Assembly: GCA_037128175.1 (NCBI GenBank)
Contig: JBAXWY010000005.1
Location: forward strand, 40,945 to 104,944
Direction: 5' to 3'
Source of the DNA: Methanothrix sp.
GTDB lineage: Archaea; Halobacteriota; Methanosarcinia; Methanotrichales; Methanotrichaceae
Length of the DNA: 64,000 nt
A program made the translations under genes and the position numbers. The notes below the pieces were generated by a model. That model did not search any database. It had not been told where the DNA came from and worked only from the letters and a program-made list of their open reading frames with translations. Shown here one piece after another: positions 5,246-27,306 of the stretch. Every line of letters starts with the position of its first letter. Positions within the stretch are counted from its first letter, which is position 1.

Positions 5246-5281
5246 CCAGGATAGACCTCCTCATAATTATTAATTATCGTT

Positions 5282-6190
5282 TTAGATAAATAGTCTAAAT
5301 AAATCATTTTCTGTCTCCTCAGAGATTTTAGCATATCTTCCATATAGGATCGCATCATGATCCTGAATAATGAAAGCTGAATAAGCAATGGCAAGAGAAA
5401 AAGCAAGTAATGCATCGGACTTATTAAGATCTCTAATTGGCGGTTCATATGAGCCAATATGTCTAACGTTTGGATGCTTGTTGGTAAATTCATAATATTT
5501 TTCGAGCGATTCTTTGGCAAGATTGGATGGAAAAATCGTTCCAGATTTATCTAGTGCTTTTCCCAACGTGTTTTCCTTAGTTCTTTCATAAAGAAAATGT
5601 TCAATTAATTTTATAGAATCCTCAATGCAATAGATTTCCTCATAAGATGAATCAATTTTATTTATATGATGCTCCAACATCTTAATACAATCAATTCTCG
5701 ATTGAGAACCCGTGATTTCAGCAAAATGCTTTATATAATTCATCTGAGTCCAAAGCAAACCTTCCAAGGAAAGAGTCAATTTGCAGGGTGGAAATAGTCG
5801 ATACCGTATATTATATTTTGCTAAAAAATATTTTAGATATTCTACATATTCCTCTGCCAATACCTCATTATTTTCTAAGATATAATTATAATATCCTTCG
5901 AAAATGTTTATCGTATCTTCTTCTGTTGGAGGAATTGGGGCATTATAAAATCCACTTCTTGCACTACTTATATCGTTAGCAGCGCTTTGCAGGTCTGAAA
6001 AAATTTTCTTGTGATTTATTAGATCTTCTTCTGTTCTCCCTTCTTCCTTAAAATAATAATCTTCTAAATTAATTAGGTAAGTAGTCAGGAGTACGCAATA
6101 TAGATCGTCTATTGCATTCTTGGATTCTTCTAATTTAGCTGCAATCTCATTGTTAATAATATGCCAATTATGCAATAAAAACATGCTCAT
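5282..6190 (-). CDS. AT-rich hypothetical protein embedded in the type I RM operon; AbiJ/HEPN-like C-terminus
   Basis: 302 aa ORF whose start overlaps the hsdS stop (ATGA). The C-terminal TLGKAL...LEKYYEFTNKHPNVRH resembles the LYGxxxxxxxIRH motif of AbiJ-related proteins. Confidence 0.6.
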   Translation of the reverse strand: MSMFLLHNWHIINNEIAAKLEESKNAIDDLYCVLLTTYLINLEDYYFKEEGRTEEDLINHKKIFSDLQSAANDISSARSGFYNAPIPPTEEDTINIFEGYYNYILENNEVLAEEYVEYLKYFLAKYNIRYRLFPPCKLTLSLEGLLWTQMNYIKHFAEITGSQSRIDCIKMLEHHINKIDSSYEEIYCIEDSIKLIEHFLYERTKENTLGKALDKSGTIFPSNLAKESLEKYYEFTNKHPNVRHIGSYEPPIRDLNKSDALLAFSLAIAYSAFIIQDHDAILYGRYAKISEETENDLFRLFI

Positions 6191-7383
6191 AGTACCAAAT
6201 CTCCTACAAATGCTTTTTGCATAAGAGATGCAAGAAGATCCTCGATTTGTGGATTTGACAGCGCTTGAAGATTTCTTATTTCTTCTACTTGATTGACCTT
6301 TTCCGAAAATTGATTCTGTAGTTCGATTTCAGGCAGGGGAAATTTGATTGACTTAAAAGTGCTAAGATTTATTTTTTGCTGTGCCGCACCTTTTGTGCTC
6401 CTAATAACTTGATTTCTAACATAATCTGTCCTAAAAACCCATAGGATGTAGGAAGCATTTGCTATTCTGGGATTCAATGTAAGCTTGATGCAATCCGCAG
6501 TAATTATGCCAGGCTGAGAATTCTCGGGATATAAAGCAACGTCACCTGGAGGGTCACCCATTTTTGTCATTAAGATGTCCCTTGGATTTACTCGATGAGA
6601 TTTAAGTTCCTCGCCTTTTGATTCATCAATAAATCGGATACCATTTCCTCGAAATTTATTCTCCCTTATATTTTTTACAAATATTAAAGGAACACCATGA
6701 CTTCTATAATCCTTTGCCATTAGGTCGCTTCCAAAGGGGCCTATTGTTATTGCATTCTTATCATCTGATGCGATATCTGTAGGTGTAACCATCTTCCATC
6801 CTTTGATATTTTGCATTGGGTCCCCAAACATTTCTACGAATATGCTAAATGGAAGCTTTTCCGCCAACTCATCCGCCTGGGCTCGTAGCCTCCTGGTCTC
6901 CTCGGCTTTATCGAGAATGGCCACGATACGGCGCTGAGTTTCACGGGGCGGCAATGGAATTTGAATGTCCTTCATTTGCTTCGCTGAAAGATGTTTGACG
7001 GTGACTTGTGGAGTTTTATCTTCTATTTGTTTTAGAATTTTAACTAGTGCTCGATAAGCAAAATCAGGTATTATTTCAGTAGAGCTAAACTCAAGTTTGC
7101 ATATCCTTTGATTGAGAAGTGCCTTTCCGCCATTCCATTTAACAATATTGAATTCACCATCCATCCCTACAAGGATTTCGTCATTATTTACGATATAATT
7201 CTCATCATAATACCCATCATAATACATTTCCGTGGCGCACGAAATTAAATTTCGAATGCGAATAATTGGCAAACCATTTCCATCTGAGTTAAATTTCGAT
7301 GATTCAAAGGGGCATCCGTAGACGAATTTCGCCAAATCCTCCAATTTTCTCCATCTCCACCCCACCGGCAACTTCCCCTCCAT
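6187..7383 (-). CDS. hsdS: Type I RM specificity subunit S
   Basis: LPVGWRWRKL, two TRDs, conserved IPLPPRETQRRIV and FPLPEIELQNQF spacers. Confidence 0.95.
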   Translation of the reverse strand: MEGKLPVGWRWRKLEDLAKFVYGCPFESSKFNSDGNGLPIIRIRNLISCATEMYYDGYYDENYIVNNDEILVGMDGEFNIVKWNGGKALLNQRICKLEFSSTEIIPDFAYRALVKILKQIEDKTPQVTVKHLSAKQMKDIQIPLPPRETQRRIVAILDKAEETRRLRAQADELAEKLPFSIFVEMFGDPMQNIKGWKMVTPTDIASDDKNAITIGPFGSDLMAKDYRSHGVPLIFVKNIRENKFRGNGIRFIDESKGEELKSHRVNPRDILMTKMGDPPGDVALYPENSQPGIITADCIKLTLNPRIANASYILWVFRTDYVRNQVIRSTKGAAQQKINLSTFKSIKFPLPEIELQNQFSEKVNQVEEIRNLQALSNPQIEDLLASLMQKAFVGDLVL

Positions 7384-7386
7384 CCC

Positions 7387-10248
7387 TCACGCCTCCGCAA
7401 ACAGTTCTTTCTCTAGCGAGCCGCAGATCTTGATAAAGCTTTTCAGCTCATCCTCAGAGAACATGGGCATGGGCGCTTTGGCCCCGAAGTTGATGAAGGG
7501 CGCATCGAATAGGTCTCCAAAGTCCAGGTGCTTCTTCTTGGCAAAGACGGATCGAATAGCCCGGATGAAGTTGAGTTGATCCGCCGTATAATTCCGGTTG
7601 TTCTCGATGATGTAGGTCTGGAAGGCGTCCCAGATTCGCTCCTCCGGCTGGGGAAACTCGTAGAGCCCAAGCACCTTCTTGATGAACTGCACCAGCGTCC
7701 CGGCCCGCTGCCGGTAGGTCTTTTGCAGTGTTTCCTCGCTGATGAAAAGCTCCGGGCTGTTTAGCGTCTCCTCTAACCTTCGCAGATCCTGCTCATCCAG
7801 CTCCTCGCCCTGCTTGATCTTCTTCAAAGCCGGATGCTCCTCTGCCAGCTTCTTGATCTTCTCCTCCACCTTCTCTTTGTAAACGGAGACGTAAACCTCC
7901 TGGCAGTCCGGCCCGAAGACGATCGTCTCCCGGCTCTGGATGAGGTCCTCCATGTCGATTATGATCGTTTTGCGCGGCTCTTTGGACATGTACTTCATGA
8001 GGCCCGACAGCTCACTGATGAGCATCTGCGCGTCATCAAAGCTCATATTCTGCCAGAACTCCTCCGACAGCGCGCGCTGCATGAAGGCCTCTTTGGGCCG
8101 GACCAAATCCAGATTGGTGGGCAGGCACTCAATCATCTCCCCAATCTCCGGCTTGAGCTTCTCAATCTCCTCCCCGTCAGCCGTCAGGATGGCCAGGCCC
8201 AGCCGCTCGCAGCGCAAAGTGAAAGAAGCCTCATTCAGGTTCACATCCGGCTTGAACTTCATGAGCGGCGTGATCCTCTCCTTCAGGAACTTCACCGGAT
8301 CAAGGCCCACGCTCTCCCAAAGCCGGGGCGAGAGCGCTTTTTCCACCTCGCGCAGGCTCTCCCGCACACTCACCGAGTCCTTGGGCAGGGATTTGATGTC
8401 TTCCAGAACCTTTGACCTGACAGCCTGCACGCCAACCTCAGCGCCGCTCTTGCGGAAGTGGTCAAGCTGCTTGAGCCTGACCATGAAGATGCGGTTGGTT
8501 ATGGCCTCCTGGCTCTGCTGAATGTCTCCATCCGGGTGCAGATCCCAGAATTCGAAGTTGCGCCAGAAGTCGAAGACCTTAAAATACTCCTTTTTCCCGT
8601 TGGGCAGCCAGTCGCGATGCTTGCAGGTTTGATCCGCGCGGGTGCCACGCCCCAGCATCTGCCAGAACTTGATCTTGGAGAGCACCGGCTTGGCAAAGAC
8701 CAGATTGCAGACCTCAGGAACATCGATGCCCGTGTCCAGCATATCCACGGAGATGGCCACCCTCGGCCACTCCTCCTCTTTGAAAGCCTTAATCAGCTGA
8801 TCTGCCCGCGAGTTAGCGGATACTATTATCCTCGCCAGCAGTCCTTTGTACTCGGGATAAAGCTTCTCGAAAGCCTCCCAAAGCCTCTTGGCATGTTTTT
8901 GAGAGACCGCAAAGAAGATGGTCTTAGCAGGATGATTGCCGGACCTGTCCATCTGGCAGCTATCCATGAACTCCCTGACGATGGCCTCGCTCGTCCCCGT
9001 GACTGCAATCTTCTTCTCCAGCTGTGTTCCCTCGAAATTGATATCGTCCGGATCAATGCCTGCTTCCGCAAGCCTCGTAAACTCTCCTGATGTCAAATCC
9101 TCAGGCTTGATGCCTTGAATCTGAAAATGAGTCTGCGCGCCCAGGATGTTCCTCCGAAAATCGCAAAGAACGCCCTCCTTGACCGCCTCCTCGTAATCGT
9201 AAAGAGCCGTTGGCGCTCCATCCAGGCAATTAAAGAACCTGAAGGTGTCCCTGTCCAAAAGATCAGATGGCGTGGCTGTGAGCCCAATCTGAATGGCATC
9301 CAGATAGGTGAAAACATCCCGCCACTTATTGTAAATGGAACGGTGCGCCTCGTCTGAGATTATCACATCGAACTCGGCAGGCGAGATCATGTACTTGCCA
9401 GAGCTGTCCTTCTTGTTGTAGATCTCCTGGAAGGTCTGAATGGTGGAGACGTACAGCCTGGCGGTCTTATCGAAATTACCGGACAGAATCTTGGACTTGG
9501 ATTCTTCCGGGAGGAATTTCTTGAATCCATCGTCGCTCGCCTGATCCCGGAGCGCTCTTCGATCCGCCAGGAAAAGAACCTTCTGCGCCCGGTTGGTCCT
9601 CAAGAGCACATCGATAATGGCCATCGCCACTCTGGTCTTTCCCGTGCCCGTGGCCATGACCACCAGGGCTTTACGATTTCCTCTTTGAATATGCTCAATT
9701 ACCCGCTTGGTTATCTCAATGCTCTTGGGACGATCAACGATCTTGCTGTTAACCTCGACGTTATTGAGTTCCAATCCCATTTCAACCTGAAAGCGGAGAC
9801 GCTCCAGGTTTTTCAGAGAGAAGAAACCCTTTACCAGTCTGGGACCATAACGTGCTCTATCCCAGAACCACATCTCATATCCGTTAGAAAGAAAGATAAA
9901 AACGTCTTTTCCCGTCTGTGATTTTATGTCATCCGCATATTCTTCAGCTTGCTTTCGGCCCAAGATGGGATCTCTTAATGTGCGCTTTGCCTCCACAACT
10001 GCAATCGGTGCGCCCATACTGTCAAGAAGAAGATAATCTGCATATTTGCTATCCAGGTCATTCCTCAAAGTCTCAGAGATTTCTTTGTAATTTTGAGCGC
10101 GAAAATCAGATTGCTTTGTGTCAACCTCAAGAATTACCTTGGATCTGTCACCAACATTCCAGCCCTGCTCTCTGAGAAGAACGTCGATCTTCTGTTTTCG
10201 AGTCTCGAACTCGTTTAGGTCCCTCCCAGAGTTGGCAATAGGCGGCAT
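7387..10248 (-). CDS. hsdR: Type I RM restriction subunit R (EcoEI/EcoAI-like)
   Basis: ADYLL..VVEAK nuclease motif, MATGTGKT, DEAH, VDMLDTGIDVP, QMLGRGTR, EcoEI_R_C-like tail. Confidence 0.95.
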   Translation of the reverse strand: MPPIANSGRDLNEFETRKQKIDVLLREQGWNVGDRSKVILEVDTKQSDFRAQNYKEISETLRNDLDSKYADYLLLDSMGAPIAVVEAKRTLRDPILGRKQAEEYADDIKSQTGKDVFIFLSNGYEMWFWDRARYGPRLVKGFFSLKNLERLRFQVEMGLELNNVEVNSKIVDRPKSIEITKRVIEHIQRGNRKALVVMATGTGKTRVAMAIIDVLLRTNRAQKVLFLADRRALRDQASDDGFKKFLPEESKSKILSGNFDKTARLYVSTIQTFQEIYNKKDSSGKYMISPAEFDVIISDEAHRSIYNKWRDVFTYLDAIQIGLTATPSDLLDRDTFRFFNCLDGAPTALYDYEEAVKEGVLCDFRRNILGAQTHFQIQGIKPEDLTSGEFTRLAEAGIDPDDINFEGTQLEKKIAVTGTSEAIVREFMDSCQMDRSGNHPAKTIFFAVSQKHAKRLWEAFEKLYPEYKGLLARIIVSANSRADQLIKAFKEEEWPRVAISVDMLDTGIDVPEVCNLVFAKPVLSKIKFWQMLGRGTRADQTCKHRDWLPNGKKEYFKVFDFWRNFEFWDLHPDGDIQQSQEAITNRIFMVRLKQLDHFRKSGAEVGVQAVRSKVLEDIKSLPKDSVSVRESLREVEKALSPRLWESVGLDPVKFLKERITPLMKFKPDVNLNEASFTLRCERLGLAILTADGEEIEKLKPEIGEMIECLPTNLDLVRPKEAFMQRALSEEFWQNMSFDDAQMLISELSGLMKYMSKEPRKTIIIDMEDLIQSRETIVFGPDCQEVYVSVYKEKVEEKIKKLAEEHPALKKIKQGEELDEQDLRRLEETLNSPELFISEETLQKTYRQRAGTLVQFIKKVLGLYEFPQPEERIWDAFQTYIIENNRNYTADQLNFIRAIRSVFAKKKHLDFGDLFDAPFINFGAKAPMPMFSEDELKSFIKICGSLEKELFAEA

Positions 10249-10390: not shown

Positions 10391-10547
10391 AGCAATACCC
10401 CGATGCTTGCATCGGGGATAAAGGGCATGCTTATTCAGCTTAGGTTTGGATCAGCTTAACCTGGTTCCACCTTCATGCGGCGGCGCCTTGGATGCCCCGC
10501 AGCTTGCTGCGCGGGTGCGCCGCCGCCGTTTCACTGAGCAAGGAACC
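10391..10547. repeat. Paired REP-like hairpins (CCCCGNNGC-TT-GCNNCG(C)GGG)
   Basis: Perfect stem ccccgatgc-tt-gcatcgggg at 10398-10417. A second hairpin ccccgcagc-tt-gctgcgcggg is nested in a gcggcggcgc/gcgccgccgc stem (10477-10526). A related copy lies at 61111-61146. Confidence 0.7.
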
Positions 10548-10549
10548 CT

Positions 10550-10858
10550 ATGATACACATGAGCCCAAGAGTTGCCGTCAGCAACACAGGTCCGCTGATT
10601 TCAGCACTACCACACGAGCCGGAAGAAGAGGTGCTATCTGCCACAGACGCCATCCAGGATGCAGAGCAATCGGAAGCTCGCTGGCAGGCCTTTGAAAAAG
10701 GTGAGAAAATGTGTCGAGTGCTTGTCGAGCTGCCGCAGCCTGCCTTCTCCAGACTGGAGAAACTGGCCCTGCAAAGAAAAAGGACCGTGTCTCATCTTGT
10801 AGAAGAGGTCATCACCGGCCTGGTGGACGTTTTTGTTCTTCCTGAAGAAAAAGCCTGA
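10550..10858 (+). CDS. Small chimeric protein: PIN(DUF3368)-like N-terminal fragment plus ribbon-helix-helix-like C-terminus
   Basis: RVAVSNTGPLISAL resembles the start of DUF3368 PIN domains; RVLVELP..FSRLEKLALQRKRTVSHLVEEVI is RHH-like. Confidence 0.5.
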   Translation: MIHMSPRVAVSNTGPLISALPHEPEEEVLSATDAIQDAEQSEARWQAFEKGEKMCRVLVELPQPAFSRLEKLALQRKRTVSHLVEEVITGLVDVFVLPEEKA

Positions 10859-10900
10859 GGCGACCATGGACTATGGCCCCGCTTAATACGTTTTTGCCGG

Positions 10901-12340
10901 TTAGAATTGGGCAGAATTCAATCCTCTGTATACGGAGACCAGGGTTCCAATTATGCATAATATCCCCGCCAGTATCATCACTCGACTTATGGTCAGAGCG
11001 AGTAGCGCTGGCCCGGCCCCCACCAGGGTCCCGTGGTATCCTGCCTGGGCAAGCTGCAGCGATACCAGAACTCCTGAAAAGGAGACCCCCAATGCCATTC
11101 CCAGGTTTCTGATAGTGGCAGTGAAGCTGGAGGCGATGTTAATCTTTGCTCTGGGTAGAGCCCTCATTATCTCGGTGTTGTTAGGGCTCTGGAAGAAAAC
11201 GCCACCTATGCCCATGGACACAAAGGTGAGCATCAACAACCGGGGGTCACAGCCTATGCTTCCCGCCAGATATCCGAGGAGCATCATGGAAATTGCCATA
11301 ATCAACATTCCCAGAGCGGCTAAGTAGCGAAACTGGTGTTTATCGTAGACCCAGCCGGTTACCGGCGCACCAATAACCATTATGGCCGGGACGATAAGGT
11401 AAATCAAACCCACTTGTGATGCCGTATAACCCATCACGCCTTCGAAATAGAATGGCCCCAGTATGGATATCATCAGGTTGGCCACAAAGAATAGTATCAT
11501 GCTGATGCAGGGCAGCACAAACATCCTGTAGCGGAATATGGAGAGGTCCAGGAGCGGGGCCTTATGCCTGGACTCAGTTATCGCAAAAGCCGCCAGAGAG
11601 CCCAGAAAGATCAAGGCCAGGGCAAGAATTCCAGGCTGAAAGGTGAAACTAACAGAAAGTTGGCCTAATATTGCCATCAGAGAAACTATAAAGGTTATCA
11701 GGGTTACTGCTCCGATCCAGTCCACCTCTAAGCTGCGGGCTCTGATGTCCTCGATTCTCATGTACCGGGTAGAGAGCAGCAACTGCATTATGCCGATAGG
11801 AACGTTAATGAGGAAAATATACTTCCAGCCCAATAGATCTACAATAAAACCGCCCAATGTGGGTCCCAACATACTGCCGATAGCGACAGTGGCTCCGATG
11901 TAACCCATGGCCCGGCCCTGCTCACCCCGAGGGAAAGCCTGAAAGATTATGGCCGAGCTTATGGAAAACATCATGGCCGCCCCCGTGGCCTGGATTATCC
12001 GGCAAAGCACAAGGAGGTTCAAGCTTGTGGAAATGCCGCAGGCCAAAGAACTGAAAGAAAAGAGGGCAATCCCGATAAAGAAGAGCCTGGCCTTGCCAAC
12101 GTATTCTGCGACCTTGCCGAAGATCATCAGCAAGCTGGTAAGCGTGACAAGATAAGAGGTCATGATCATTTGTGACTGGGCGATGCTGACACGAAAATAT
12201 GCGGTAATGGTGGGAAGGGCGATGCTGACCACGGAACCATCAACCACTGCCATCAAGACGCCTGTGAGAACAAGCAGCAAAACTATGTAACGATTCTTGC
12301 TACCCGATTCCAGCTCCAAATCCCTTTCTTCAGCGTGCAT
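10901..12340 (-). CDS. MFS transporter, DHA2 (EmrB/QacA) family
   Basis: VDGSVVSIALPTI, GPTLGG...WKYIFLINVPIG, about 14 TM segments. Confidence 0.92.
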   Translation of the reverse strand: MHAEERDLELESGSKNRYIVLLLVLTGVLMAVVDGSVVSIALPTITAYFRVSIAQSQMIMTSYLVTLTSLLMIFGKVAEYVGKARLFFIGIALFSFSSLACGISTSLNLLVLCRIIQATGAAMMFSISSAIIFQAFPRGEQGRAMGYIGATVAIGSMLGPTLGGFIVDLLGWKYIFLINVPIGIMQLLLSTRYMRIEDIRARSLEVDWIGAVTLITFIVSLMAILGQLSVSFTFQPGILALALIFLGSLAAFAITESRHKAPLLDLSIFRYRMFVLPCISMILFFVANLMISILGPFYFEGVMGYTASQVGLIYLIVPAIMVIGAPVTGWVYDKHQFRYLAALGMLIMAISMMLLGYLAGSIGCDPRLLMLTFVSMGIGGVFFQSPNNTEIMRALPRAKINIASSFTATIRNLGMALGVSFSGVLVSLQLAQAGYHGTLVGAGPALLALTISRVMILAGILCIIGTLVSVYRGLNSAQF

Positions 12341-12480: not shown

Positions 12481-13218
12481 ATGAATGTTCAAGATAAGAT
12501 CGTCATCGTAACTGGTGCCTCATCGGGCATCGGCCTGGCTACTGCCAAACTTCTCGCGGAACACGGCGCGAAAGTCGTCCTCGTCTCTCGTTCCAAGGAG
12601 AAACTGGAGAAGCTCTCCAAGGAGATTCCATTATCTATTGCCATTGATGCCGATATGACGAAGATCTCCGATATAAAAAGGGTGGTAGATCAAACGCAGG
12701 AGCATTTCGGAAGAATTGATATCCTGATCAACAATGCCGGGCAGGGATACGATGCTCCCATTGAAAAGACCAATATCGACACGTTTCATTATATCTTCGA
12801 CCTTGATGTCGTCGGACCGCTTGCAGCCATGCAGCAAGTAATTCCCATCATGAGGAAGCTTGGTGGAGGAGCAATCATCAATATCAGCTCAGGATCGGCA
12901 CTGATGTATCTGCCGAACATGGGTGCCTATTCGGCATCCAAGCGAGCTCTGGCCAATATCAGCCTGACCGCGCGTGAAGAGCTGAAAAAGGATAATATTA
13001 TTATCAGTGTGGTGTATCCCTATATTACACTCACTGATTTTGAGAATAACACCAGAAAAGAGCCTGCAGATAATGGCGGAGAGCAAGCAGGCAATGCCCC
13101 CTTTCCACCAGACTCTGCAGAATTAGTGGCCCATAAGATACTGGACGGCATAGAAAGCGGGGCGGCGGAAATCTTTGCCCATGATTGGATGAAGAAAATG
13201 GGCAGAAGAGAAGAATAA
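12481..13218 (+). CDS. Short-chain dehydrogenase/reductase
   Basis: TGASSGIG, NNAG, YSASK catalytic motif. Confidence 0.93.
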   Translation: MNVQDKIVIVTGASSGIGLATAKLLAEHGAKVVLVSRSKEKLEKLSKEIPLSIAIDADMTKISDIKRVVDQTQEHFGRIDILINNAGQGYDAPIEKTNIDTFHYIFDLDVVGPLAAMQQVIPIMRKLGGGAIINISSGSALMYLPNMGAYSASKRALANISLTAREELKKDNIIISVVYPYITLTDFENNTRKEPADNGGEQAGNAPFPPDSAELVAHKILDGIESGAAEIFAHDWMKKMGRREE

Positions 13219-13310
13219 CATTGCAGCTTTGCATTTTGAGGATACTGGAGAGCGTGAGGCACGATAAACGCCCCGCCCGAACACGCTGGCGCATGGGTCA
13301 CAACTTTACT

Positions 13311-13553
13311 CCGCAGGAAGTGCGCCGCATATTAGTAATCGCGTCTGGAAGATGAGGTTGCCGGAAAACCCCTTAGGCGCGATGACGATTGTCTCCCTCC
13401 CGGCAGCTCTCGATCAGTATCCCTTTGTGCTTCGCCTCCTGGCTCGCTTCATGGGCCGGGGCGGCGATCAGCTCTCCTTACCGCCGGCTCCTGTCCACGC
13501 GCTCGCACCCGGCCCCCGGTCCTCCTATACGGCCTCTGGACAACAGCGGATGG
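13311..13553 (-). pseudogene. Decayed internal/3' fragment of mtxX (matches about 20282-20522)
   Basis: Clear alignment by eye, e.g. ggaagatgaggttgccg..gcgatgacgat..cccggcagctctcgatcagtatccctttgtgcttcg..gcgatcagctc..gtccacgcgctcgcacc; frameshifted. Confidence 0.88.
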
Positions 13554-13565
13554 CCACCTCGCTAT

Positions 13566-14447
13566 CTAGCTTTTTATGTTAGGGGTTGGAAGGTTAAATA
13601 GCACATTTCCGCCCCCTGATCCAATGGGTACATACAAGACGTTAGGGTTGGTCTTTATTCCCTGAACAAATTCCCAGGAAACCAGTGTTGGCGTAACTGA
13701 TTCTCCCTTGATACGGTTTGCCTCAGCAATGCCCTTTGCTTCAATGACCAGTCTCTTGGCTTCTTGCTCGGATTGCTGGATGGTGAACTGCATCTGCTGA
13801 GCTTGTTGCTGCTTCTGCTGTTTAATTGTAATGGCTTCCTGAAGCTCCTTTGGCAGATAAATTCCCCTCAGCCAGACTCTTTCGATGATAATGCCGGTTT
13901 GACCAAGCTCTTGCTTAAGGTGCTTTTCAACATCCGCTTGAATTTCGGTCGACTTGTTTGTGTAAATATCTTCTGCTGTGTATTTTTTGATTTCAGACCG
14001 CAATAGGCCCATGAAAGAGGGGGTCAATTTTGTGTCGACATAGTCTCCTCTTACGGTTCGGTATATTTCGGGAGCTTTAGTCGGATCAAGATGCCAGAGC
14101 ACGCTACTGTCAAGCTTTATTTCAAGACCTTCGCTCGTTAGCGTCCCAGTTACTTCTTTGTATTCTATTTGCTGGGTCTGAGTATTCATCTCATGAACTC
14201 CGGTGAGCGGATCTTTAAAATTGAATCCAGGACTGAGCACGATGTCGGAAACCACTCCGAACCGGTCCAGCACGCCGACATTACCGGCTGGAATTACTGC
14301 TATAAAGGATCCTCCCACTAGTCCAAGCACTATCAGGGATATGATTGCAATTACGAGGAATGCCTTTAACCCAAAAGAAAACGTTGGAGTCTTGGGCATC
14401 TTCTGCTTTATTTTCTCTCTTAATATATCGCTATCTATTCCGCTCAT
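13566..14447 (-). CDS. SPFH/prohibitin (band 7) family protein
   Basis: N-terminal TM, IPAGNVGVLDRFG, LTSEGLEIKLD, coiled coil with EAKGIAEAN. Confidence 0.9.
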   Translation of the reverse strand: MSGIDSDILREKIKQKMPKTPTFSFGLKAFLVIAIISLIVLGLVGGSFIAVIPAGNVGVLDRFGVVSDIVLSPGFNFKDPLTGVHEMNTQTQQIEYKEVTGTLTSEGLEIKLDSSVLWHLDPTKAPEIYRTVRGDYVDTKLTPSFMGLLRSEIKKYTAEDIYTNKSTEIQADVEKHLKQELGQTGIIIERVWLRGIYLPKELQEAITIKQQKQQQAQQMQFTIQQSEQEAKRLVIEAKGIAEANRIKGESVTPTLVSWEFVQGIKTNPNVLYVPIGSGGGNVLFNLPTPNIKS

Positions 14448-14518
14448 CTATTAGAGAATTAGAACGTCTAAGAATTTAGTTCTGTCGATAAGAGTCTCGC
14501 GAAATGAACAAATGCATA

Positions 14519-15415
14519 TCACGCCATCTCTCCGTAAAATTTGAAGACCGTGTATGAGTTTCCAACAACTTGAATCTCTGACATTCCAAAGAACTCCTTA
14601 TTCCAATTCGTGGGCAGATATCTTGCGATCGCTAACATAGCCCCGCTGATCAGCAATACTATGAAGAAGAACAATCTTTTTTCAATGAATGAAAAGGCAC
14701 CGACGAGTAAGCAAATCAAGGACACTATCGCCATTGCATTTCCCCAGCCAATATGTTTCAGTCCGCCCGTTATTTGGATTGTGTTATCATCCACCCTTTC
14801 AGCAAGCAGCATGATATTATTCATGTTGATTGCCATAGATTCTTCCACCCGCTGATTGGTGCCTACCACGTTTGACGGGTTTTCAAAGTCAAATTGCGCC
14901 CCGTTGTCAGTCATAATTACCAAAGGAAGATCAAAGCATCCCAAGAAGTTTCCACTTGTGTGCTTGCCATCAATTACATACTCGGTTACCAGTTCAAGCG
15001 GTTTGATTTTACTAACCAGTGCGACTTTTTCCGAGTCGGATGGAACTTTGACAAGCCTTGCCAAATTAAACAGGTCGCTAGCGGCTTTTGCAGAGTCAAA
15101 ATCCCTTAACCGATTCAAGGCTTCTTTATCGTTGCTGAAAATGAAATCATCAACGACCTCAGGGAAAACGTTCTGCCCAGGGGTCTTGTAGCGATTCTTA
15201 ATTGCTTTTTTCAACTCCCCTACGCTCACCAGGAATACCGGTCCAAGGATTTCTATCTTATTCTCTGTTGTAATAATTTTGGGATTGTGAAGCTTCACTG
15301 CTCTTGCAGAAGCTTTTCCGCCGATCTTTTTTGAAGGTAGATGAGAGGTGGCAGCAAGTGTTATCGCCTCAATCTCTTTATCCATCAAATTGGAGATCTC
15401 TTGGATTTCATTCAT
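14519..15415 (-). CDS. Hypothetical protein with C-terminal TM hairpin
   Basis: 298 aa ORF with two hydrophobic helices near the C-terminus; co-oriented with neighbours. Confidence 0.65.
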   Translation of the reverse strand: MNEIQEISNLMDKEIEAITLAATSHLPSKKIGGKASARAVKLHNPKIITTENKIEILGPVFLVSVGELKKAIKNRYKTPGQNVFPEVVDDFIFSNDKEALNRLRDFDSAKAASDLFNLARLVKVPSDSEKVALVSKIKPLELVTEYVIDGKHTSGNFLGCFDLPLVIMTDNGAQFDFENPSNVVGTNQRVEESMAINMNNIMLLAERVDDNTIQITGGLKHIGWGNAMAIVSLICLLVGAFSFIEKRLFFFIVLLISGAMLAIARYLPTNWNKEFFGMSEIQVVGNSYTVFKFYGEMA

Positions 15416-15419
15416 AGCT

Positions 15420-16019
15420 TCACCGCTCTAGGATGACAACATAAAAGGGACTGCTAATATACACCGTCCCCGTTTGGCGGTATATCCGATCGTCTATCTG
15501 CACTATATCTGGATCGGTTCTGGGCAGGACCTTTAAAGCCTCAGCCGGAGTATCAAGGTCCTTTGTGACATCAGAGTACTTGGGTCCGGTTATTGAGGTT
15601 TCGCCTCCCTTCACGTAGAGCACATCCGGATCTTGGCATGACTGAAAAACCATGTCGCTTTCCGCCAGACTCACTTCAAGATTTTCGGGATTATCTACGT
15701 TGCTGCATGTCAATTGTCTCCCCTTAAAAGATTCGCCGAATCCTGAGATTCTTATCGACAGCAATTCGCTGGCGCCGGCAACCATGATTACTTTTCTTGA
15801 AACAAAGTATCGAATAGGGGAGTGCTTAAACTCGAAATCCTTGCAAGCCGCCAATCGTCTGGCCGTTTCCGGATCGATTTGCCCTTGTCTCGCAATTTCT
15901 ATTAGCTCTTGATTCATCGTTCTCAAGATCGTTGAACCTGCATTTATATCAATTGGAGCCCGTAGAAGATCTATGCCCAATTCCCCTGAGGCCCTATCCT
16001 TTCTATTTTCTAAGTTCAA
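15420..16019 (-). CDS. Hypothetical protein
   Basis: 199 aa ORF with short gaps to its neighbours (4 and 15 bp). Confidence 0.6.
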   Translation of the reverse strand: MNLENRKDRASGELGIDLLRAPIDINAGSTILRTMNQELIEIARQGQIDPETARRLAACKDFEFKHSPIRYFVSRKVIMVAGASELLSIRISGFGESFKGRQLTCSNVDNPENLEVSLAESDMVFQSCQDPDVLYVKGGETSITGPKYSDVTKDLDTPAEALKVLPRTDPDIVQIDDRIYRQTGTVYISSPFYVVILER

Positions 16020-16034
16020 AAAAGATGTGGTGAT

Positions 16035-17387
16035 CTAAAAATAGACCGCCGTTCCTGGTTCCACGTTGATTATCTTCAGGACTCCCCGTTGGAAGAACAT
16101 GGTCTTAGGGTAGTTAAACTGGCCATCATAAACTCTAATGTCATGGTTCTGATTGCCAACAACACTAAAGCTGAACCTTCCGTCCAGAGCATCTCCAATC
16201 GTACCTTCAGTGCCGATTAATGTGCCATCCAAAAATACTTGATATCCACGCATACCTTGGGACACTATTGTTGCAGGCGTGTCCCCATAAGTTGGAGACG
16301 GTGTTGTTACTGGCGGCAGAGTCTGAGTTGGAGGATAGGTAGCAACTGGCGGTTGGTATGGCGGATTGTAGCTCGTAACATCGATGACTATCGAATTACT
16401 CACTTGACCGCCAATAACGAAGAGCAGTATGTGCTGCCCGATTTCACCCGCGTTGAATCCTATCTGGCTGTTTCCAGGGAAGAAGTTGAAGCTGTTCTTG
16501 GACAGTATTCCATTGGGATTTATCTCATATAGGTATCCATTGCCTCCGGGGGAAGTTGTTGCCAAGAGGGACAGACTGGATCCTTGTGGAACTACGGCGT
16601 ACTGCGTCCAGCTTGTGGCACCCCGTATCCACAGAGAATTGCCTCCTGTATATGTGGCATAAGTCTGGTACTGAGAGTATGGCACCTCTTGCATCTGGTA
16701 ACCGAAGTAGAGTGTGGATGGAGCAATCTGTATCGAATATTTCTGAGGCGCGATGATGTGGGTGCTTGCAGCAACCGAAGACGACATAGAATAATACTGG
16801 GAATACTGCAAGATGGAATTCGAACTGATCTTTTGGCCAACTTGCGAGGATGTGCCTTGCTGCATGGTGGCTTGAGTCTGAACTTGACTGCTGGATGTTT
16901 TAGTTGAAGACTGGCTGGTAGATCCAGCAATTATGGTTTGGCCGAGAGATGATGACGTTTCTGTGGTGGCAGTCACCTTTATCGTGCCGCTTATTGCTGT
17001 ATCTATGAGGCTATAAGTGTATTCGCCAGAAGTGCCATAATAAAACGAGAACTTTTTGCCTGCATTTATGACCACCGAATTGAATTGTCCGTTGCTGCTT
17101 AATACATGTACCTTTCCATCCTGGTTATGCCATGTTACAATTGTTCCTTCGGGCACCAGCAGAATTGAGGGCTTGAATGAATCATCCTTGATATTTATGG
17201 TATATGCAGAGCCACCATTTCCAGAGGCATCCGATTCTTTGTCCTTATTTCCAGAGCCACTATTTCCGGGGGAATACGATTGATCTTTGTCCTTTCCATT
17301 ACCTTTGCCCTGATCATTATCCTTGACAGCTATGCTGGACGAGCTAATGACAAGAAGCAACATCAATATAAGCAAATATCTTTTCAT
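16035..17387 (-). CDS. Secreted protein with cupredoxin-like domain, S/T/Q-rich linker and C-terminal beta domains
   Basis: Signal peptide; INIKDDSFKPSILLVPEGTIVTWHNQD..H...GEYTY...GTIKV cupredoxin fold pattern. Confidence 0.75.
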   Translation of the reverse strand: MKRYLLILMLLLVISSSSIAVKDNDQGKGNGKDKDQSYSPGNSGSGNKDKESDASGNGGSAYTINIKDDSFKPSILLVPEGTIVTWHNQDGKVHVLSSNGQFNSVVINAGKKFSFYYGTSGEYTYSLIDTAISGTIKVTATTETSSSLGQTIIAGSTSQSSTKTSSSQVQTQATMQQGTSSQVGQKISSNSILQYSQYYSMSSSVAASTHIIAPQKYSIQIAPSTLYFGYQMQEVPYSQYQTYATYTGGNSLWIRGATSWTQYAVVPQGSSLSLLATTSPGGNGYLYEINPNGILSKNSFNFFPGNSQIGFNAGEIGQHILLFVIGGQVSNSIVIDVTSYNPPYQPPVATYPPTQTLPPVTTPSPTYGDTPATIVSQGMRGYQVFLDGTLIGTEGTIGDALDGRFSFSVVGNQNHDIRVYDGQFNYPKTMFFQRGVLKIINVEPGTAVYF

Positions 17388-17551
17388 TATCCATTCTCCT
17401 ATATAGATTCGCTATATAACAATAATACTCTTACTACTTATAATAGTGGCCTTTATGTGTTGAAGAATCCAAAGATTTAAATGTTGGTATTTCAACCAAT
17501 GAGACAACCATATTTTTCAATTGGCGGACGGATTTTCCATGGTCGTATACT

Positions 17552-17727
17552 TCCCCATCATCCCCGCTCTGGCGCTTGCCGGCATCATCCAGCCCGTCGA
17601 ACCCGCCCCTGGGCCCTACCGGAGTCCATGAAAGATAACTGTCTATCAGCATCGAGCAGCTATAGGGATGCGCCCCGAATTGCGCCCCGAATAATAGAAG
17701 CAGCGTTTAGAAGATGATGTGGCCCGC
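17552..17727 (-). pseudogene. Decayed 3'-terminal fragment of mtxX (matches about 20178-20336)
   Basis: catcccc..ggcgcttgccggcatcatccagcccgtcgaaccc..ggagtccatgaa..gtctatcagca..gccccgaataatag..agcgtttagaagatga aligns to the mtxX end; contains a 12 bp tandem duplication tgcgccccgaat (17669-17692). Confidence 0.82.
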
Positions 17728-17766
17728 GACAAAATTTCTGTTAAAATTTGTCTTTCCAGTCCGGCA

Positions 17767-18339
17767 TTACTTTATCGGCTGATAGCGGAGCCAGACGATT
17801 CCATTCTTGAACGTTCTTGCTTCGAGCAAATTCAGGTTCATCTTTTGTACATCTGCAAATAAGTTCTTGCCTGCACCCAAGATAACGGGATTGACCTGGA
17901 GTATGCATTCGTCAATAAGGCCGAGATTGGCAAACTGTTGTACTATGGTGCCGCTTCCCAATATTGCAATACCTTTGCCCTCTTGCTCTTTCAGTCTAAT
18001 CATTTCTCCCAGGTTAATTTCATGAAGGAGCTTGATGTTTTTCCAACGAGGACCTTCCTCAACGCTTTGCAGGGTCTTTGAAAAGACTATTTTCGGGATA
18101 TTGTTCATGACCTCTGCCATAATGGGATTGTTCTTAATTGCATCAGGAGTGGGCCAGTAACTACTCATCAGTTCATAGGTCGTACGGCCGAAGATCAGCA
18201 AATCACCTGATTTCGGCTGCTCACGGGAAAACTCATCGTACTCATCATCTCTATCAACTTTAAACCAATCTATCTCACCGTGCGGCCCTGCAAAGTAGCC
18301 GTCAACTGTAACATTATTGAATACGACGATTTTTCTCAT
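17767..18339 (-). CDS. Dihydrofolate reductase / RibD C-terminal family protein
   Basis: MRKIVV..VTVDGYFAGP, FGRTTYE, GSGTIVQ..GLIDE..PVILGAGK; start reassigned to ATG 18339. Confidence 0.9.
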   Translation of the reverse strand: MRKIVVFNNVTVDGYFAGPHGEIDWFKVDRDDEYDEFSREQPKSGDLLIFGRTTYELMSSYWPTPDAIKNNPIMAEVMNNIPKIVFSKTLQSVEEGPRWKNIKLLHEINLGEMIRLKEQEGKGIAILGSGTIVQQFANLGLIDECILQVNPVILGAGKNLFADVQKMNLNLLEARTFKNGIVWLRYQPIK

Positions 18340-18468
18340 ATATTCACATCCACACGCACAATGTTTAGTTTTATCTTTATAAATAGATTTTTGCCACCAG
18401 CAAAAATATTGAGTAGATTGCAATGTCTGTAGAAAAATTTAAATACTATTCATATTAATAACCCCTTT

Positions 18469-20139
18469 GTGCACCAGATAACATTTGGCCACAAGATAAG
18501 GCTTTTAATCATAATGGGCGTGCTGTTGTCATCCATCATATTTTCTCAAGGATCTCCATGCACCGAAAATGTGAGTTATGCCTCCTCTGGATCCGTTTTC
18601 GATGCAGTCCGATTACTGCAATGGACGGGGTACGTGGGCGTCGTGCCCTATTGGCCGGGACCGTTGATCTATGTCGAAATTCATAATAATCCTCCAGAAA
18701 TACCGATTATCCCCGTGGGATCGGCCAATGGCGTCCCTGCTGCATCCTATAGCTATTCCACCTTTGCCGTCGATCCGGATGCAGACCAGGTTACGTACAC
18801 CTTCGATTGGGGTGACGCAGCTGAATCGAACACGCCTCTCATCAATTCGGGTGTTGCTGCGAGCGCTAATCACACATGGAGCAAGGCCGGGAAATATAGG
18901 ATCAGAATCATGGCCACCGATAGCAAGGGCGCCTTCTCCGAATGGTCGAAGCCGCTTAACATCACCATAAATACGCCGCCAGGCAAACCCAATGCGCCAT
19001 CCGGCCCAGTTTCAAGCAGGCCTGGCTCTACCAATAATTATACCGTATCCTCCACTGATCCAGACGAAGATCAGATGAAGTACACACTTGATTGGGGTGA
19101 TGGAACTGAATCGATCACCGGCTTTCTCGTCTCCGGTGCAAAAGCGAGCGCGAATCATACCTGGAAGAAAGCCGGAACATACCGGATCAGAGCCAATGCC
19201 GTTGACGAAAGGGGGTCATCCTCCGGATGGTCAGAGGCGCAAAATGTCATCATAAATTCTCCCCCCGATAACCCCTCCAAACCATCCGGCCCCGGATCGG
19301 TCTATGCCTGGGCCGCATATACTTACACTTCATTGGCATCCGACCCAGACGGAGATGAAACCGAGTACATCTTCGACTGGGGAGACGGAAATAATTCCAG
19401 TACGAATCTGATCAGATCCGGCAGCAATGCAAGTGCAGTGCACAGTTGGAGGAATGATGGAGACTACCGGGTCAGAGCCATTGCCAGAGATCGGATGGGA
19501 GCCCCATCAAATTGGTCCGAAAATTTGACAGTAACCGTTATTGCAAACAGCAAACCCAATAAACCAAAGGAGCTATTCGGACCGAGCTCTGGCTACACAG
19601 GGATCGCTCACAGCTACTTTACAATGGCTAAGGATAACGATAGTGACAAAGTTATGTACTCTTTCGATTGGGGTGATGGGACGACCTCTACTACTGAGAT
19701 GGTCGATTCCGGCTCAGTTGAAAGCGCACCTCATACCTGGTCCAAAGCGGGAAGGTTCCGGATCAAAGCCAACGCTACCGACAGCAAAGGCGCATCATCA
19801 GGGTGGACGGATCTTATGAATGTAACTATCAGCGACAATGATCCACCCCATTCACCGATCGTGCCGGCGGGACCGACATCTGGACGAAGCAAGGCCACTT
19901 ACAGATATGCTACATCTGCAAACGATCCCGATGGAGACCGGGTCAAGTATGTCTTCGACTGGGGAGATAAAACCACTTCCTGGACAGGTTTGGTCTTCAT
20001 CGAATCCGGAAAGAAGGAAAGCGTATCTCACAAATGGAGCCAGGCCGGAACATACCAGGTCAAAGCCATGGCCCTCGACGATAAAGGAGCGACATCAGGA
20101 TGGTCGAATTCGCTGGTTATCAATATATCCTCGGACTAA
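18469..20139 (+). CDS. Secreted PKD-domain repeat protein (5 repeats)
   Basis: Five repeats of DPDxDxxxYxFDWGD...HTW...G.Y.....A.D..G..S.WS; signal peptide. Confidence 0.88.
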   Translation: MHQITFGHKIRLLIIMGVLLSSIIFSQGSPCTENVSYASSGSVFDAVRLLQWTGYVGVVPYWPGPLIYVEIHNNPPEIPIIPVGSANGVPAASYSYSTFAVDPDADQVTYTFDWGDAAESNTPLINSGVAASANHTWSKAGKYRIRIMATDSKGAFSEWSKPLNITINTPPGKPNAPSGPVSSRPGSTNNYTVSSTDPDEDQMKYTLDWGDGTESITGFLVSGAKASANHTWKKAGTYRIRANAVDERGSSSGWSEAQNVIINSPPDNPSKPSGPGSVYAWAAYTYTSLASDPDGDETEYIFDWGDGNNSSTNLIRSGSNASAVHSWRNDGDYRVRAIARDRMGAPSNWSENLTVTVIANSKPNKPKELFGPSSGYTGIAHSYFTMAKDNDSDKVMYSFDWGDGTTSTTEMVDSGSVESAPHTWSKAGRFRIKANATDSKGASSGWTDLMNVTISDNDPPHSPIVPAGPTSGRSKATYRYATSANDPDGDRVKYVFDWGDKTTSWTGLVFIESGKKESVSHKWSQAGTYQVKAMALDDKGATSGWSNSLVINISSD

Positions 20140-20163
20140 AAAGCTGTTCGCTTGCATGATATT

Positions 20164-20970
20164 CTATTCCCTATCCATCTCCCTCATCCCTGCCATGGCA
20201 CTCGCCAGCATCACCGGTCCGTCGAACCCTCCCCTGGCCCGGCTGGAGTCCACGAAGACCTTGTCCATCAGCACCGGCGCGCCGTAGGACGAAGCCCCAC
20301 ATAATAGTAATAGCGTTCGGAAGATGAGGTTGCCGCAAATGCCATCGGGTGCGATGACGATGTCGTCTCCCCGGCAGCTCTCAATCAGTATCCCTTTGTG
20401 CTTCGTCGCCAGGCCCGCCTCCTGGGCCCGGGCTGCGATCAGCTCGCCTTCCAGAAGACTTCGGTCCACGCGCTCGCACCGGCCCATGTCCTCCATCCGC
20501 CCGCCCGAGAGCACGGCCCCCTTTGCCGCCAGGTCCATGCCCTGCAGGAATTTCGCTCCTCCCAGCAAGAGCTCCAGCCGGTCCGACACAGTTTCGCCCT
20601 CATCGATGCCCACCGGCCCCAGCAGGAAGGCCCAGCCGGACAGCTCCAGCAGGGCCAGACGCCGCACGCGGATCTGAAACTGCTCTGCAACGGCCCGCAT
20701 GGTCCTTCCTGCTGGCAGGTTTCCCCTCACCGCCCCATCAATCTCGCCCTCGGCCAAAAGGCGCACCAGCTCCTTCCAGGGCTCTTTGCAGGCGACATAA
20801 TCGAGAGCACAGTCGCAGCAGGGATCGCCTACCAGGAGCAGATCGGCATATTTCGTGGCTGACTGGAGGGAAGCGATCAGCTCTGCATCTGCATTCCAGA
20901 TGCCAATGCCGATGCGGGCGTGCCTGGATCTGGCCTTTTCCTGTAGTGAGCGCACAAAGTTAGAGTCCAT
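20164..20970 (-). CDS. mtxX: Methanogenesis marker protein 4 / MtxX
   Basis: IDGAVRG, LGPVGIDEG, LSGGR.ED.GR..RVD.SL, APDGICGNLIFRTL, FVDSSR. Confidence 0.88.
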   Translation of the reverse strand: MDSNFVRSLQEKARSRHARIGIGIWNADAELIASLQSATKYADLLLVGDPCCDCALDYVACKEPWKELVRLLAEGEIDGAVRGNLPAGRTMRAVAEQFQIRVRRLALLELSGWAFLLGPVGIDEGETVSDRLELLLGGAKFLQGMDLAAKGAVLSGGRMEDMGRCERVDRSLLEGELIAARAQEAGLATKHKGILIESCRGDDIVIAPDGICGNLIFRTLLLLCGASSYGAPVLMDKVFVDSSRARGGFDGPVMLASAMAGMREMDRE

Positions 20971-20971
20971 A

Positions 20972-21934
20972 TCAGTGAATTCCGGTTACGCACTCCTTTT
21001 CCAGATCGAAAAGGACAATCTCTTCCGACCCCTGACGAATGACGAGCTTCCTATCCTCCGTCACCCGGCCGATCACCCTTGCCGTCAGGCCGCGCCTTTC
21101 GAACACCTCTAAGACCGCCTCTGCATTCTCAGGTTTAGCGGTTACGACAAAGCCCATTCCGGGATACATCTTCAGCCAGCTTGCCAGATCCAGGCCCGCG
21201 GGAACTGGAATTGCTTCTACATCCACAACGGCGCCCACCCGGCTTGTTTCCAGCAGCATGCCCAGGGTCCCCAGCAGTCCCGGATTGCTGATATCTTTTC
21301 CGGCCTTAACCAGCCTCCTCTCGCCCAGCTCCTGCATACTTCCTAGCTGCATGAGCAGAGTCTTGCTGTCCTTGAAGCTGGTGGAGTCGAAGTTTATAGC
21401 GAATTTGGGATGGGGCCGGCCATCCATATCCGCAGCCGCTACTACTACCTCGCCCGCCCTGGCCGTACTGCTTAGAATGACGCCGCTCTTTTTGGCCTTG
21501 CCAAGGATTGCCACGTCTAGAGCGCTGTAAGGCGTGTCCGGATGCAGGTGGCCGCCGATAATGGGCACATGAAACTTCTCAATTGCGGTCTTCATGCCTC
21601 GCAGGACTTTTTCCATAATCTCCTGGTTGTCCACGGAGAGCACATCCACCATGGCCACCGGCCAGCCGCCCATGGCCGCGATATCGTGCACATTGACCAG
21701 AACGGAACAGTAGCCGGACCACTCCGGATCGACCTCCATGAGCTTGGACCAGATGCCGTCCGCAGCCAGGAGCATGACCTCCTCTCCATCGTCAATAACT
21801 GCCGCATCCTCACCAAAGGAGGCGATGATACGCTCTGACTCTATGGGAAAGAATTGCATGAGGCTACCTATCTGCTTTTTGCGAGTGATGCCTACAAATC
21901 CTCGCAGCTGGGATGCCAGAGACTCCAGATTCAT
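20972..21934 (-). CDS. Methanogenesis marker protein 2 (AIR synthase-like)
   Basis: FVGITRK, FGEDAAVI, LAADGIW, VNVHDIAAMGG, GGHLHPD, KDISNPGLLGTLGMLLE. Confidence 0.9.
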   Translation of the reverse strand: MNLESLASQLRGFVGITRKKQIGSLMQFFPIESERIIASFGEDAAVIDDGEEVMLLAADGIWSKLMEVDPEWSGYCSVLVNVHDIAAMGGWPVAMVDVLSVDNQEIMEKVLRGMKTAIEKFHVPIIGGHLHPDTPYSALDVAILGKAKKSGVILSSTARAGEVVVAAADMDGRPHPKFAINFDSTSFKDSKTLLMQLGSMQELGERRLVKAGKDISNPGLLGTLGMLLETSRVGAVVDVEAIPVPAGLDLASWLKMYPGMGFVVTAKPENAEAVLEVFERRGLTARVIGRVTEDRKLVIRQGSEEIVLFDLEKECVTGIH

Positions 21935-27196: not shown

Positions 27197-27252
27197 GCAA
27201 TGATCCGAACTTGGGATTCCGGCTATTTCGAGCGGGTAATAGAATAATCGAG

Positions 27253-27294: not shown

Positions 27295-27306
27295 TAGTAC
27301 CGTCAG

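Follow-up and report, generated by a model that had tools for sequence, protein, structure and literature searches.

A variable gene island between mtxX and MoxR in Methanothrix, with decayed mtxX copies as possible anchors of homologous recombination

Direct repeats are amplified or deleted by unequal crossing-over, and circles can be inserted through a common segment in a Campbell-type event. Integrons are characterized by intI, attI and attC hairpins and hold cassette arrays of accessory genes, while the prophages e14 and 21 in icd of Escherichia coli bring a replacement 3' end. For archaea, tandem arrays of integrated elements have been described at tRNA genes or in the 3'-distal parts of protein genes (Krupovic et al. 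2019, PMC6563490); in the thaumarchaeal survey of that paper, 14 of 68 elements were located in 3'-distal parts of protein genes, with attachment (att) sites of up to 69 bp and a median of 45 bp. Replacement islands of aquatic microbes, as summarized in the abstract of Lopez-Perez et al. (2014, PMC4033161), are exchanged via homologous recombination at conserved flanks. Here we compare with these systems a locus observed in 64,000 nt of Methanothrix sp. DNA (the window; GCA_037128175.1, contig JBAXWY010000005.1, positions 40,945 to 104,944), where the intact methanogenesis marker gene mtxX is followed downstream by decayed pieces of itself, interspersed with accessory genes. The genome, G000 below, comprises 98 contigs and 2.96 Mb; G012, G042, G016, G013, G051 and the other G numbers are relatives within the genus, and L066 is a metagenome contig.

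An interval of 18.6 kb separates mtxX from a gene for a MoxR AAA+ ATPase in G000, and we interpret it with moderate confidence as a flexible genomic island between Mmp2-mtxX and MoxR in which a few mtxX duplicates acted as homology anchors. The intact mtxX gene (Mmp4; 20164..20970, minus strand) is an open frame of 268 aa that scored 193.7 bits against TIGR03270 (NCBIfam cut-off 190), and it is both the homology source and the left anchor of the island. Just upstream is the core gene Mmp2 (methanogenesis marker 2; 20972..21934, minus strand; TIGR03267, 419.5 bits). The synteny of Mmp2 and mtxX was kept in all relatives examined, making Mmp2 the fixed side of the boundary.

A preliminary description of this stretch had reported two decayed mtxX pieces downstream of the gene and in its orientation, and blastn within the window confirmed both. 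Gene coordinates are given as nt 1-807 of mtxX, counted from the ATG. Remnant A (17546..17724, minus strand; gene nt 637-799) matched mtxX 20172-20334 with 69.8% identity over 179 nt (E 1.7e-13). Remnant B (13322..13540, minus strand; gene nt 477-677) matched mtxX 20294-20494 with 80.4% identity over 204 nt of its letters 13322-13525 (E 1e-47), and its extension to about 13540 was judged against a copy in a sister species. Remnant B is of the type named R1/R2 in the relatives, and its 3' side is cut by an insertion carrying an SDR and an MFS transporter gene. Both remnants are frameshifted, with the protein match of B spread over two frames. The firm homology of remnant A begins only at about gene nt 655-690; it is a chimera whose body is unlike the copy in the same place in G042. 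The two remnants do overlap as described, by 41 nt (gene nt 637-677) in place of the estimated 55 bp or so. No further copies were observed in the window, where the next blastn match had an E-value of 0.003 and all others at least 0.15, nor did the whole assembly contain an additional mtxX DNA match at E <= 0.01. Remnant A is followed by a 45-nt tail (17500..17545, minus strand) also found behind the relatives' copies R4, R4' and R1 and behind no intact mtxX; from its letters this tail may represent a different and longer C-terminus encoded by the allele that was copied. We considered whether A and B could be one copy split by the entry of the genes between them. This was ruled out, as along the gene direction the 3' piece precedes the internal piece.

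The MtxX protein was searched against 59 genomes of the genus, and the same search was repeated with Mmp2. We found mtxX in 54 of the 59 genomes and decayed pieces of it in nine (G000, G012, G042, G016, G013, G051, G056, G048 and G035), with up to four decayed copies in the sister species. Copy length ranges over 100-520 nt, with 70-85% likeness between copies. Those that are complete all stop at gene nt 799-803 but begin at different points (about 1, 243, 286, 526 and about 655). The preliminary description had named an invariant gene order without remnants as the case that would speak against it. That is not what we observed, given pieces in 9 of 59 genomes and differing content; its expectation of variable cargo separated by mtxX pieces held in several species. 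Decayed copies of Mmp2 were observed in none of the 59 genomes. The additional Mmp2 matches were full-length paralogues of at most 33% identity, contig-end splits and one 43-residue piece beside its own gene (G060). At the array loci no MoxR fragments were found, with one full-length hit per locus. G043 (95% MtxX identity) and 45 other genomes of the genus have mtxX without pieces, and the genes downstream of it differ, as at empty or refilled sites. In the nearly complete genome G005, an in-frame TGA was observed in mtxX (L013 / L046 18589-19387), which reads as one piece of aa 1-189 and another, overlapping it, of aa 180-266. The cause may be a frameshift or break in the gene or a mistake in the assembly, and G005 was left out of the count as holding adjacent parts of one TGA-interrupted gene.

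The arrays differ in their order from species to species. In G012, mtxX is followed by a PKD gene, a partial RibD_C gene, copy RA (693-799), a cupredoxin-like gene, R1 (286-492, 632-702), the convergent pair hicA/hicB, R2 (286-767), a segment termed p-flank, R3 (243-360, 486-527, 600-803), two more genes and MoxR. In G042, a 66-nt mtxX piece (gene nt 401-467) is located 46 nt beyond the mtxX stop, ahead of a giant open reading frame (ORF) of 3020 aa with PKD-like repeats (L063 1408-10470) directly downstream of the gene; PKD genes, a block of genes for a 199-aa protein, a 298-aa protein and an SPFH protein, an HsdM fragment, a transporter gene, an SDR gene, R4' (526-795), the cupredoxin-like gene, R1 (286-802), p-flank, R3, an HsdM C-terminal fragment and MoxR follow. 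The order in G016 is R5 (286-755), an S8 peptidase gene, R4, p-flank, R3, an HsdM fragment and, further on, MoxR. G013 and contig L066 share an order that runs through SPFH, RB, hicAB, a hybrid copy, an HsdM fragment and MoxR. In G051, whose MtxX is 87% identical, mtxX is followed by hicA, hicB and a copy of nt 286-660. In the more distant species G014, a hicA fragment (L041 7488-7607; aa 26-65, 67.5% identical to the HicA of G051) was also observed convergent just past an mtxX without remnants, which suggests that hicAB beside mtxX is old.

Fragments were also found away from mtxX. In three more distant species a MoaA-like radical SAM gene has an mtxX 3' fragment of 90-130 nt right at its stop codon (L054 492-581 in G056, L055 880-969 in G048 and L056 12193-12326 in G035). 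These fragments start at about nt 664-681; those of G056 and G048 have 89-93% likeness to clade-A mtxX over 90 nt, and the G035 fragment reaches the stop-codon region and has an accessory AAA ATPase gene next to it. The MoaA-like gene of G000 stands at a contig end.

The boundaries of the island are stable, while its content is not. The order YdjM - CBM96 - PolD DP2 - Mmp2 - mtxX was kept across the genus on the upstream side. At the far boundary, MoxR (605..1561, minus strand; PF07726) is 95-99% identical and single-copy at the array end in G012, G016, G013, G042, L066 and G001. Between these same boundary genes, the content differs among G000, G012, G042, G016, G013, L066 and G001, as in flexible islands. 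Downstream of mtxX we also observed RibD_C and PKD genes in G004, MFS and PKD genes in G015, an S8 peptidase gene in G002 and hicAB in G051, in addition to the 3020-aa PKD-rich ORF of G042. Across species the island contains surface proteins (PKD, S8, giant adhesin-like), hicAB, type I restriction-modification, SPFH, SDR and MFS genes. Its GC content in G000 is 0.38-0.52 in most 1-kb bins, compared to 0.56-0.60 in mtxX, Mmp2 and PolD.

Several of the copies share features that point to few origins. The 5' junction at nt 283-286, together with about 25 nt of filler and a hicB flank, is common to G012_R2, G013_R3, G016_R5 and G051_R, and both R1 copies retain the last 25-30 nt of this nt-286 junction. 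R3 has a separate junction near nt 243, abutting a dispersed repeat that resembles a miniature inverted-repeat transposable element (MITE). The junctions fall into at least three classes: one copy formerly full length, one starting from nt 243 and one from nt 286 beside hicAB. The 45-nt tail (past about nt 790) is present in RA, R4, R4' and R1 of G042; in R2 of G012 the tail region is missing from the alignment, yet that copy has the p-flank that trails the tail. Beyond the tail the copies divide into two sets, one leading into p-flank and one into the sequence upstream of the cupredoxin-like gene. A search of the genus for the tail returned G012, G042 (twice), G016 and G001; in G001, p-flank, an HsdM fragment and MoxR come after it, and the sequence upstream of it has no likeness to mtxX. 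A maximum-likelihood tree was built from nt 286-803 of 18 intact mtxX genes and 14 copies. In it, all clade copies formed one group (UFBoot 88), set apart from the clade's intact genes with support 99 and joining at the base of their stem, and the G051 copy was sister to that genome's own mtxX (support 100). Because the copies are monophyletic and several have one junction and one 45-nt tail, the events that produced them appear to have been few, rather than serial and independent.

At least one of these events involved more than the end of the gene. Copy R4 of G016 contains gene nt 1-22 (19/22 matches, including the ATG) and nt 72-98 (25/26) directly before nt 537-802, and its bigger internal deletion is bounded on both sides by an 11-nt sequence repeated in the gene. 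As it keeps the start-codon region, at least the R4 lineage began as a whole gene and not as a displaced 3' end. The region upstream of R4 is AT-rich and unlike Mmp2. Plain tandem duplication of mtxX nt 286 through hicB was considered as the sole origin and rejected, there being no second hicAB after the nt-286 copy. No single series of steps that we tried for G000, G012, G042, G016 and G013 yielded the positions of the SPFH block and the SDR gene.

Comparison of the arrays showed that the copies took part in rearrangements. The second copy in G013 matches R2 of G012, flank included, at 94% to about nt 360 and then has the two internal deletions of R3; the material that separates R2 from R3 in G012 is all gone. 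In G042, R1 carries the flank that trails R2 in G012, and hicAB is missing. Remnant A and R4' of G042 occupy the equivalent place, ahead of the tail and the cupredoxin-like gene. Between the two bodies likeness is only about 65-75% and there are indels, while G000 and G042 are about 95% alike from window position 17560 or so onward, and both bodies are in register with mtxX. This in-register switch indicates that one lineage swapped its upstream part by a crossover inside mtxX-like sequence near the 3' end. It is the one breakpoint mapped, near nt 785. The flanks in G012 are distinct for each copy (RA, tail and cupredoxin gene; R1, hicAB; R2, tail and p-flank), a set that fits what would be expected if every flank had once trailed the then-current 3' end. 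The R5-S8 block of G016 is collinear with mtxX-S8 of G002, and the S8 proteins are 82.8% identical, a value within the range of the G000-G002 orthologue identities (MtxX 85%, Mmp2 86.5%, PolD 88%). Between intact genes, likeness differed over short segments: the mtxX of G043 is 82.7% like that of G000 over nt 701-804 and about 94% elsewhere, with a different downstream region, and that of G051 is 79% alike in nt 1-242 and 87% in nt 286-804.

Contigs from four public metagenome runs were also searched for alternative arrangements. Joints of 4239 to 13548, 17652 to 17766 and 17643 to 18371 resemble the arrangements of G042 and G012. A joint of 13398 to 20371, from remnant B to mtxX, was observed in one contig with a 28-nt side and 90% likeness; this was too weak to be taken as a deletion variant, as the metagenome is mixed and the letters may be a relative's copy.

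We propose that extra mtxX copies arose a few times in the ancestor of a small clade (G000, G012, G042, G016, G013), and the two mtxX-like pieces of G000 would be pseudogene debris of them. As the copies are direct repeats of a conserved anchor gene, ordinary homologous recombination would act on them and may have multiplied, fused and deleted them. It may also have brought different gene blocks together through in-register joints in mtxX-like sequence, whether by unequal crossing-over, Campbell-type entry of copy-bearing circles or exchange with other strains. Other material, such as the SDR-MFS pair and the MITE-like repeats, would have come by unrelated insertions. The copies, their common junctions, the hybrids, the in-register switch and the variable content are the observations behind this proposal; that the process was driven by homology rather than by a dedicated recombinase, and the order of events, we infer. 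Homology-facilitated recombination had been offered in the preliminary description as a fallback, and it is the part of that account that fits best.

Several observations weigh against this proposal. Divergence is greatest (70% identity) in remnant A, the copy nearest to mtxX, whereas simple stacking with the newest copy inside predicts the reverse. Gene conversion could produce the monophyly of the copies and mask independent origins, and the G051 remnant is 91% like its own mtxX yet has the junction of the other clade. The order of events is not reconstructable without assumptions. The sole mapped switch falls in the last 20-25 nt of gene-like sequence, which also fits a site-specific core. 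In G000 the copies are now too diverged (70-80%) and their overlap too small (41 nt) to recombine, so that here the process is historical. Among the contigs of the four public runs we observed no circular or alternative form, and in particular no sign of the circular cargo joined at an mtxX segment that the preliminary description had suggested looking for. Other genes of G000 also have fragments nearby, for example C4:34006-38173 and C24:32563-32952 with 39602-39773, from a self-comparison that gave 91 low-copy local similarity pairs. Near-parent fragments are therefore not peculiar to mtxX. In comparison with Mmp2, which has none in 59 genomes, the debris is specific to mtxX. A genome-wide screen for gene fragments by open-frame cover was crude, having missed remnant B itself, and gives no rate estimate. 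A multi-species stack of fragments was found at no other locus looked at. Part-gene repeats within 1-10 kb, some of them intergenic, were also observed at C28:22399-23437 with 33441-33693 and at window 38865-39162 with 39925-40221; such near-parent repeats may be further debris of the same kind.

A possible though less probable explanation is that the extra mtxX copies, whether produced by tandem or segmental duplication or acquired as a second copy by transfer, simply decay in a tolerant region and play no part in its turnover, with cargo moving by illegitimate insertions, MITE activity and deletions. The fragments near their parent genes at other G000 loci agree with this, as do the monophyly of the remnants and the confinement of arrays to one small clade plus G051. 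The SDR-MFS pair sits inside a remnant and not at its end, MITE-like repeats abut the R3 and R5 junctions and p-flank, and one copy was full length with an AT-rich upstream region of its own, all as expected of passive debris. The hybrid copies and the in-register switch at remnant A argue otherwise, showing that the copies take part in rearrangements. Tandem duplication also predicts a second hicAB after the nt-286 copy, and G012 and G051 have none. The common end of all complete copies at nt 799-803, set against variable 5' ends, and the lack of Mmp2 debris in 59 genomes are likewise not what a passive accumulation would lead one to expect.

It appears unlikely that the 3' end of mtxX is an attachment site at which every integrating element supplies the gene with a fresh 3' end and pushes the former one aside, by a recombinase acting in trans or since lost. 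Such integration is described for archaea, in 3'-distal parts of protein genes and in tandem arrays, in the survey cited above (PMC6563490). The pieces in gene orientation, with complete ones reaching the gene 3' end and variable 5' ends, agree with it; so do the flanks of G012, which are compatible with serial displacement, the one mapped switch within the last 20-25 nt, the lower likeness of G043 mtxX over nt 701-804 beside a different downstream region, and the 3' fragments after the MoaA-like gene in three further species. G000 also has six tyrosine-recombinase matches elsewhere. The nearest PF00589 matches are at window 60962-61081 and 62783-63280, about 40 kb off on the upstream side of mtxX, one of them in a 332-aa frame.

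The arrays themselves gave no sign of such machinery. Integrase, transposase and casposase families were absent from 21 window ORFs (>=120 aa, positions 1-32000), from 57 and 62 ORFs of the relatives' arrays and from 19 further frames (15 short ones from window intergenic gaps and 4 from relatives), so that the lack of a local recombinase noted in the preliminary description is confirmed and extends to every array scanned, in at least ten genomes and contigs. No MtxX relative was found on viral contigs, where three pattern matches were all unrelated. A 19-nt junction motif occurred at 12 metagenome loci, three of this lineage (L066, L068, L069) and nine by chance, with no free element and no integrase among them. 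No tRNA gene or Rfam family that could be the real target was found in window 1-32000. Around the inserts we found copies of 100-520 nt in place of short repeats with a common core, against att sites of up to 69 bp (median 45 bp) in the cited thaumarchaeal survey (PMC6563490); remnants A and B have only nt 637-677 in common, leaving no common core in G000. The displaced pieces are not 3' parts only, the copies in the window being 3' or internal and R4 of G016 having a start codon. As several copies have one junction in common, the events behind them were not independent; divergence is greatest in the innermost remnant; and PKD, RibD_C, MFS and S8 genes also flank mtxX in species without remnants. 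Of the earlier idea that mtxX is a repeatedly used integration or recombination target, the recurrence in related species, the freedom of Mmp2 from debris and the in-register switch remain, while an integrase, an att core and independent serial events do not. A full-text literature search, supplements not covered, returned no description of mtxX as such a target.

Least probable of all, we consider it doubtful that the mtxX 3' half is a dedicated site where small circles made of a 3' segment and a convergent toxin-antitoxin pair or gene block, moving between genomes of the genus, insert via the last 20-25 nt by a recombinase encoded elsewhere. The comparison with an integron array, made in the preliminary description, did not hold up: no integrase was found, the boundaries consist of direct repeats that derive from mtxX (no separate search for attC folding was made), and in place of single-gene cassettes in one orientation there are PKD and SDR genes on the opposite strand, a four-gene block, a four-gene restriction-modification operon and an SDR-MFS pair inside a remnant.

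The genes of the island in G000 were assigned with Pfam, and the names given to them earlier were borne out. Nearest to mtxX and convergent with it is a PKD-repeat surface protein (18469..20139, plus strand; PF18911, PF00801), homologues of which adjoin mtxX in G015 and G004, both without remnants. A RibD_C (DHFR-like) protein (17767..18423, minus strand; PF01872, E 3e-20) completes the first group of genes. Beyond remnant A, the second group begins with a 450-aa protein (16035..17387, minus strand) with a weak cupredoxin-like match below the cut-off (PF13473, E 7.6e-5), which by synteny comes after a remnant and the 45-nt tail in G000, G012 and G042. It continues with the block of a 199-aa and a 298-aa protein, both without a family, and an SPFH/Band 7 protein (13566..16019, minus strand), whose position differs among G000, G042 and contig L066.

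Beyond remnant B are the SDR (12481..13218, plus strand) and the MFS transporter (10901..12340, minus strand). These form a 2.45-kb insertion that separates remnant B from the flank directly trailing the same copy in G012; the stretch measures 2453 nt in G000 versus 82 nt in G012. A metagenome contig, compared by eye, joins window 10867 to remnant-type letters. From the 82 nt of G012 and this joint we conclude that the SDR-MFS pair was inserted into an mtxX copy. The p-flank (10535..10867, minus strand), which trails R2, R4 and R1 in G012, G016 and G042, respectively, has weak RHH and PIN-like traces (RHH_5, E 0.003; DUF3368, 23.9 bits), both below cut-off. It is adjoined by a second short dispersed repeat (window 10390-10535) with 14-37 genome copies, at which the depth of public-run contigs peaks at 136 and 180 versus about 10-30. 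The MITE-like repeat is about 220 nt long, has inverted ends and was observed at window 1583-1657, 27245-27409 and 32922-33058 and in G016 (L033 11130-11350). It gave 99 genome BLAST hits, 39 of at least 100 nt and 17 of at least 180 nt, and abuts the 5' junctions of R3 and R5 in the relatives.

The type I restriction-modification operon (3734..10248, minus strand; Pfam and PADLOC) consists of HsdR (7387-10248), HsdS (6187-7383), a 302-aa protein (5282-6190) and HsdM (3734-5245). It is complete in G000, while G013, G016 and G042 keep only an HsdM C-terminal fragment, fused to R3 at nt 700. The C-terminal third of hsdM was left as a fragment in five relatives (window counterpart 3728-4255), at L033 5263-5798, L034 about 11400-11928, L064 5879-5997 and 13001-13524, and L077 8943-9581. 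These have one common breakpoint (window about 4251-4255) at R3 nt 700; G001 differs, with a breakpoint at aa 293.

In an abundant lineage of acetoclastic-type methanogens, genes turn over at a hot spot between mtxX and MoxR. Under the homologous recombination that we favor, such an island would change without an integrase, with leftover copies of the anchor gene supplying the homology. If instead mtxX were a dedicated site, it would be a new type of archaeal cassette platform, an integrase-in-trans counterpart of a cassette array. The decayed copies are usable as strain-typing markers, and they call for caution in annotation and assembly around mtxX, a methanogenesis marker gene.

Set beside the known systems, the locus has features of each. 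Like integrons, it holds an array of accessory genes, toxin-antitoxin modules included, beside a fixed platform, with content varying between relatives; unlike them, it has no intI or attI that we could find, its boundaries are repeats of a housekeeping gene rather than attC, and its blocks are multi-gene and of mixed orientation. With tandem integrated elements it shares same-orientation 3' pieces between gene blocks, an intact gene that is kept and empty sites in relatives. It differs from them in the lack of an integrase, in repeats of 100-520 nt versus tens of nt, in common junctions, in one copy with a start codon and in neighbor genes of mtxX that look vertically inherited. Recombination between repeats accounts for the hybrids, the disappearance of hicAB from between R1 and R2, the common junction and the in-register joints, and alone leaves the source of new gene blocks and of the first copies unexplained. 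The likeness to flexible islands (PMC4033161) extends to a fixed place between Mmp2-mtxX and MoxR, gene sets of surface and defence functions that differ in close relatives, and possible signs that recombination has ended within the core gene at the flank. What sets this island apart from those described in the abstract of that work is a stack of decayed copies of the anchor gene, which have recombined among themselves.

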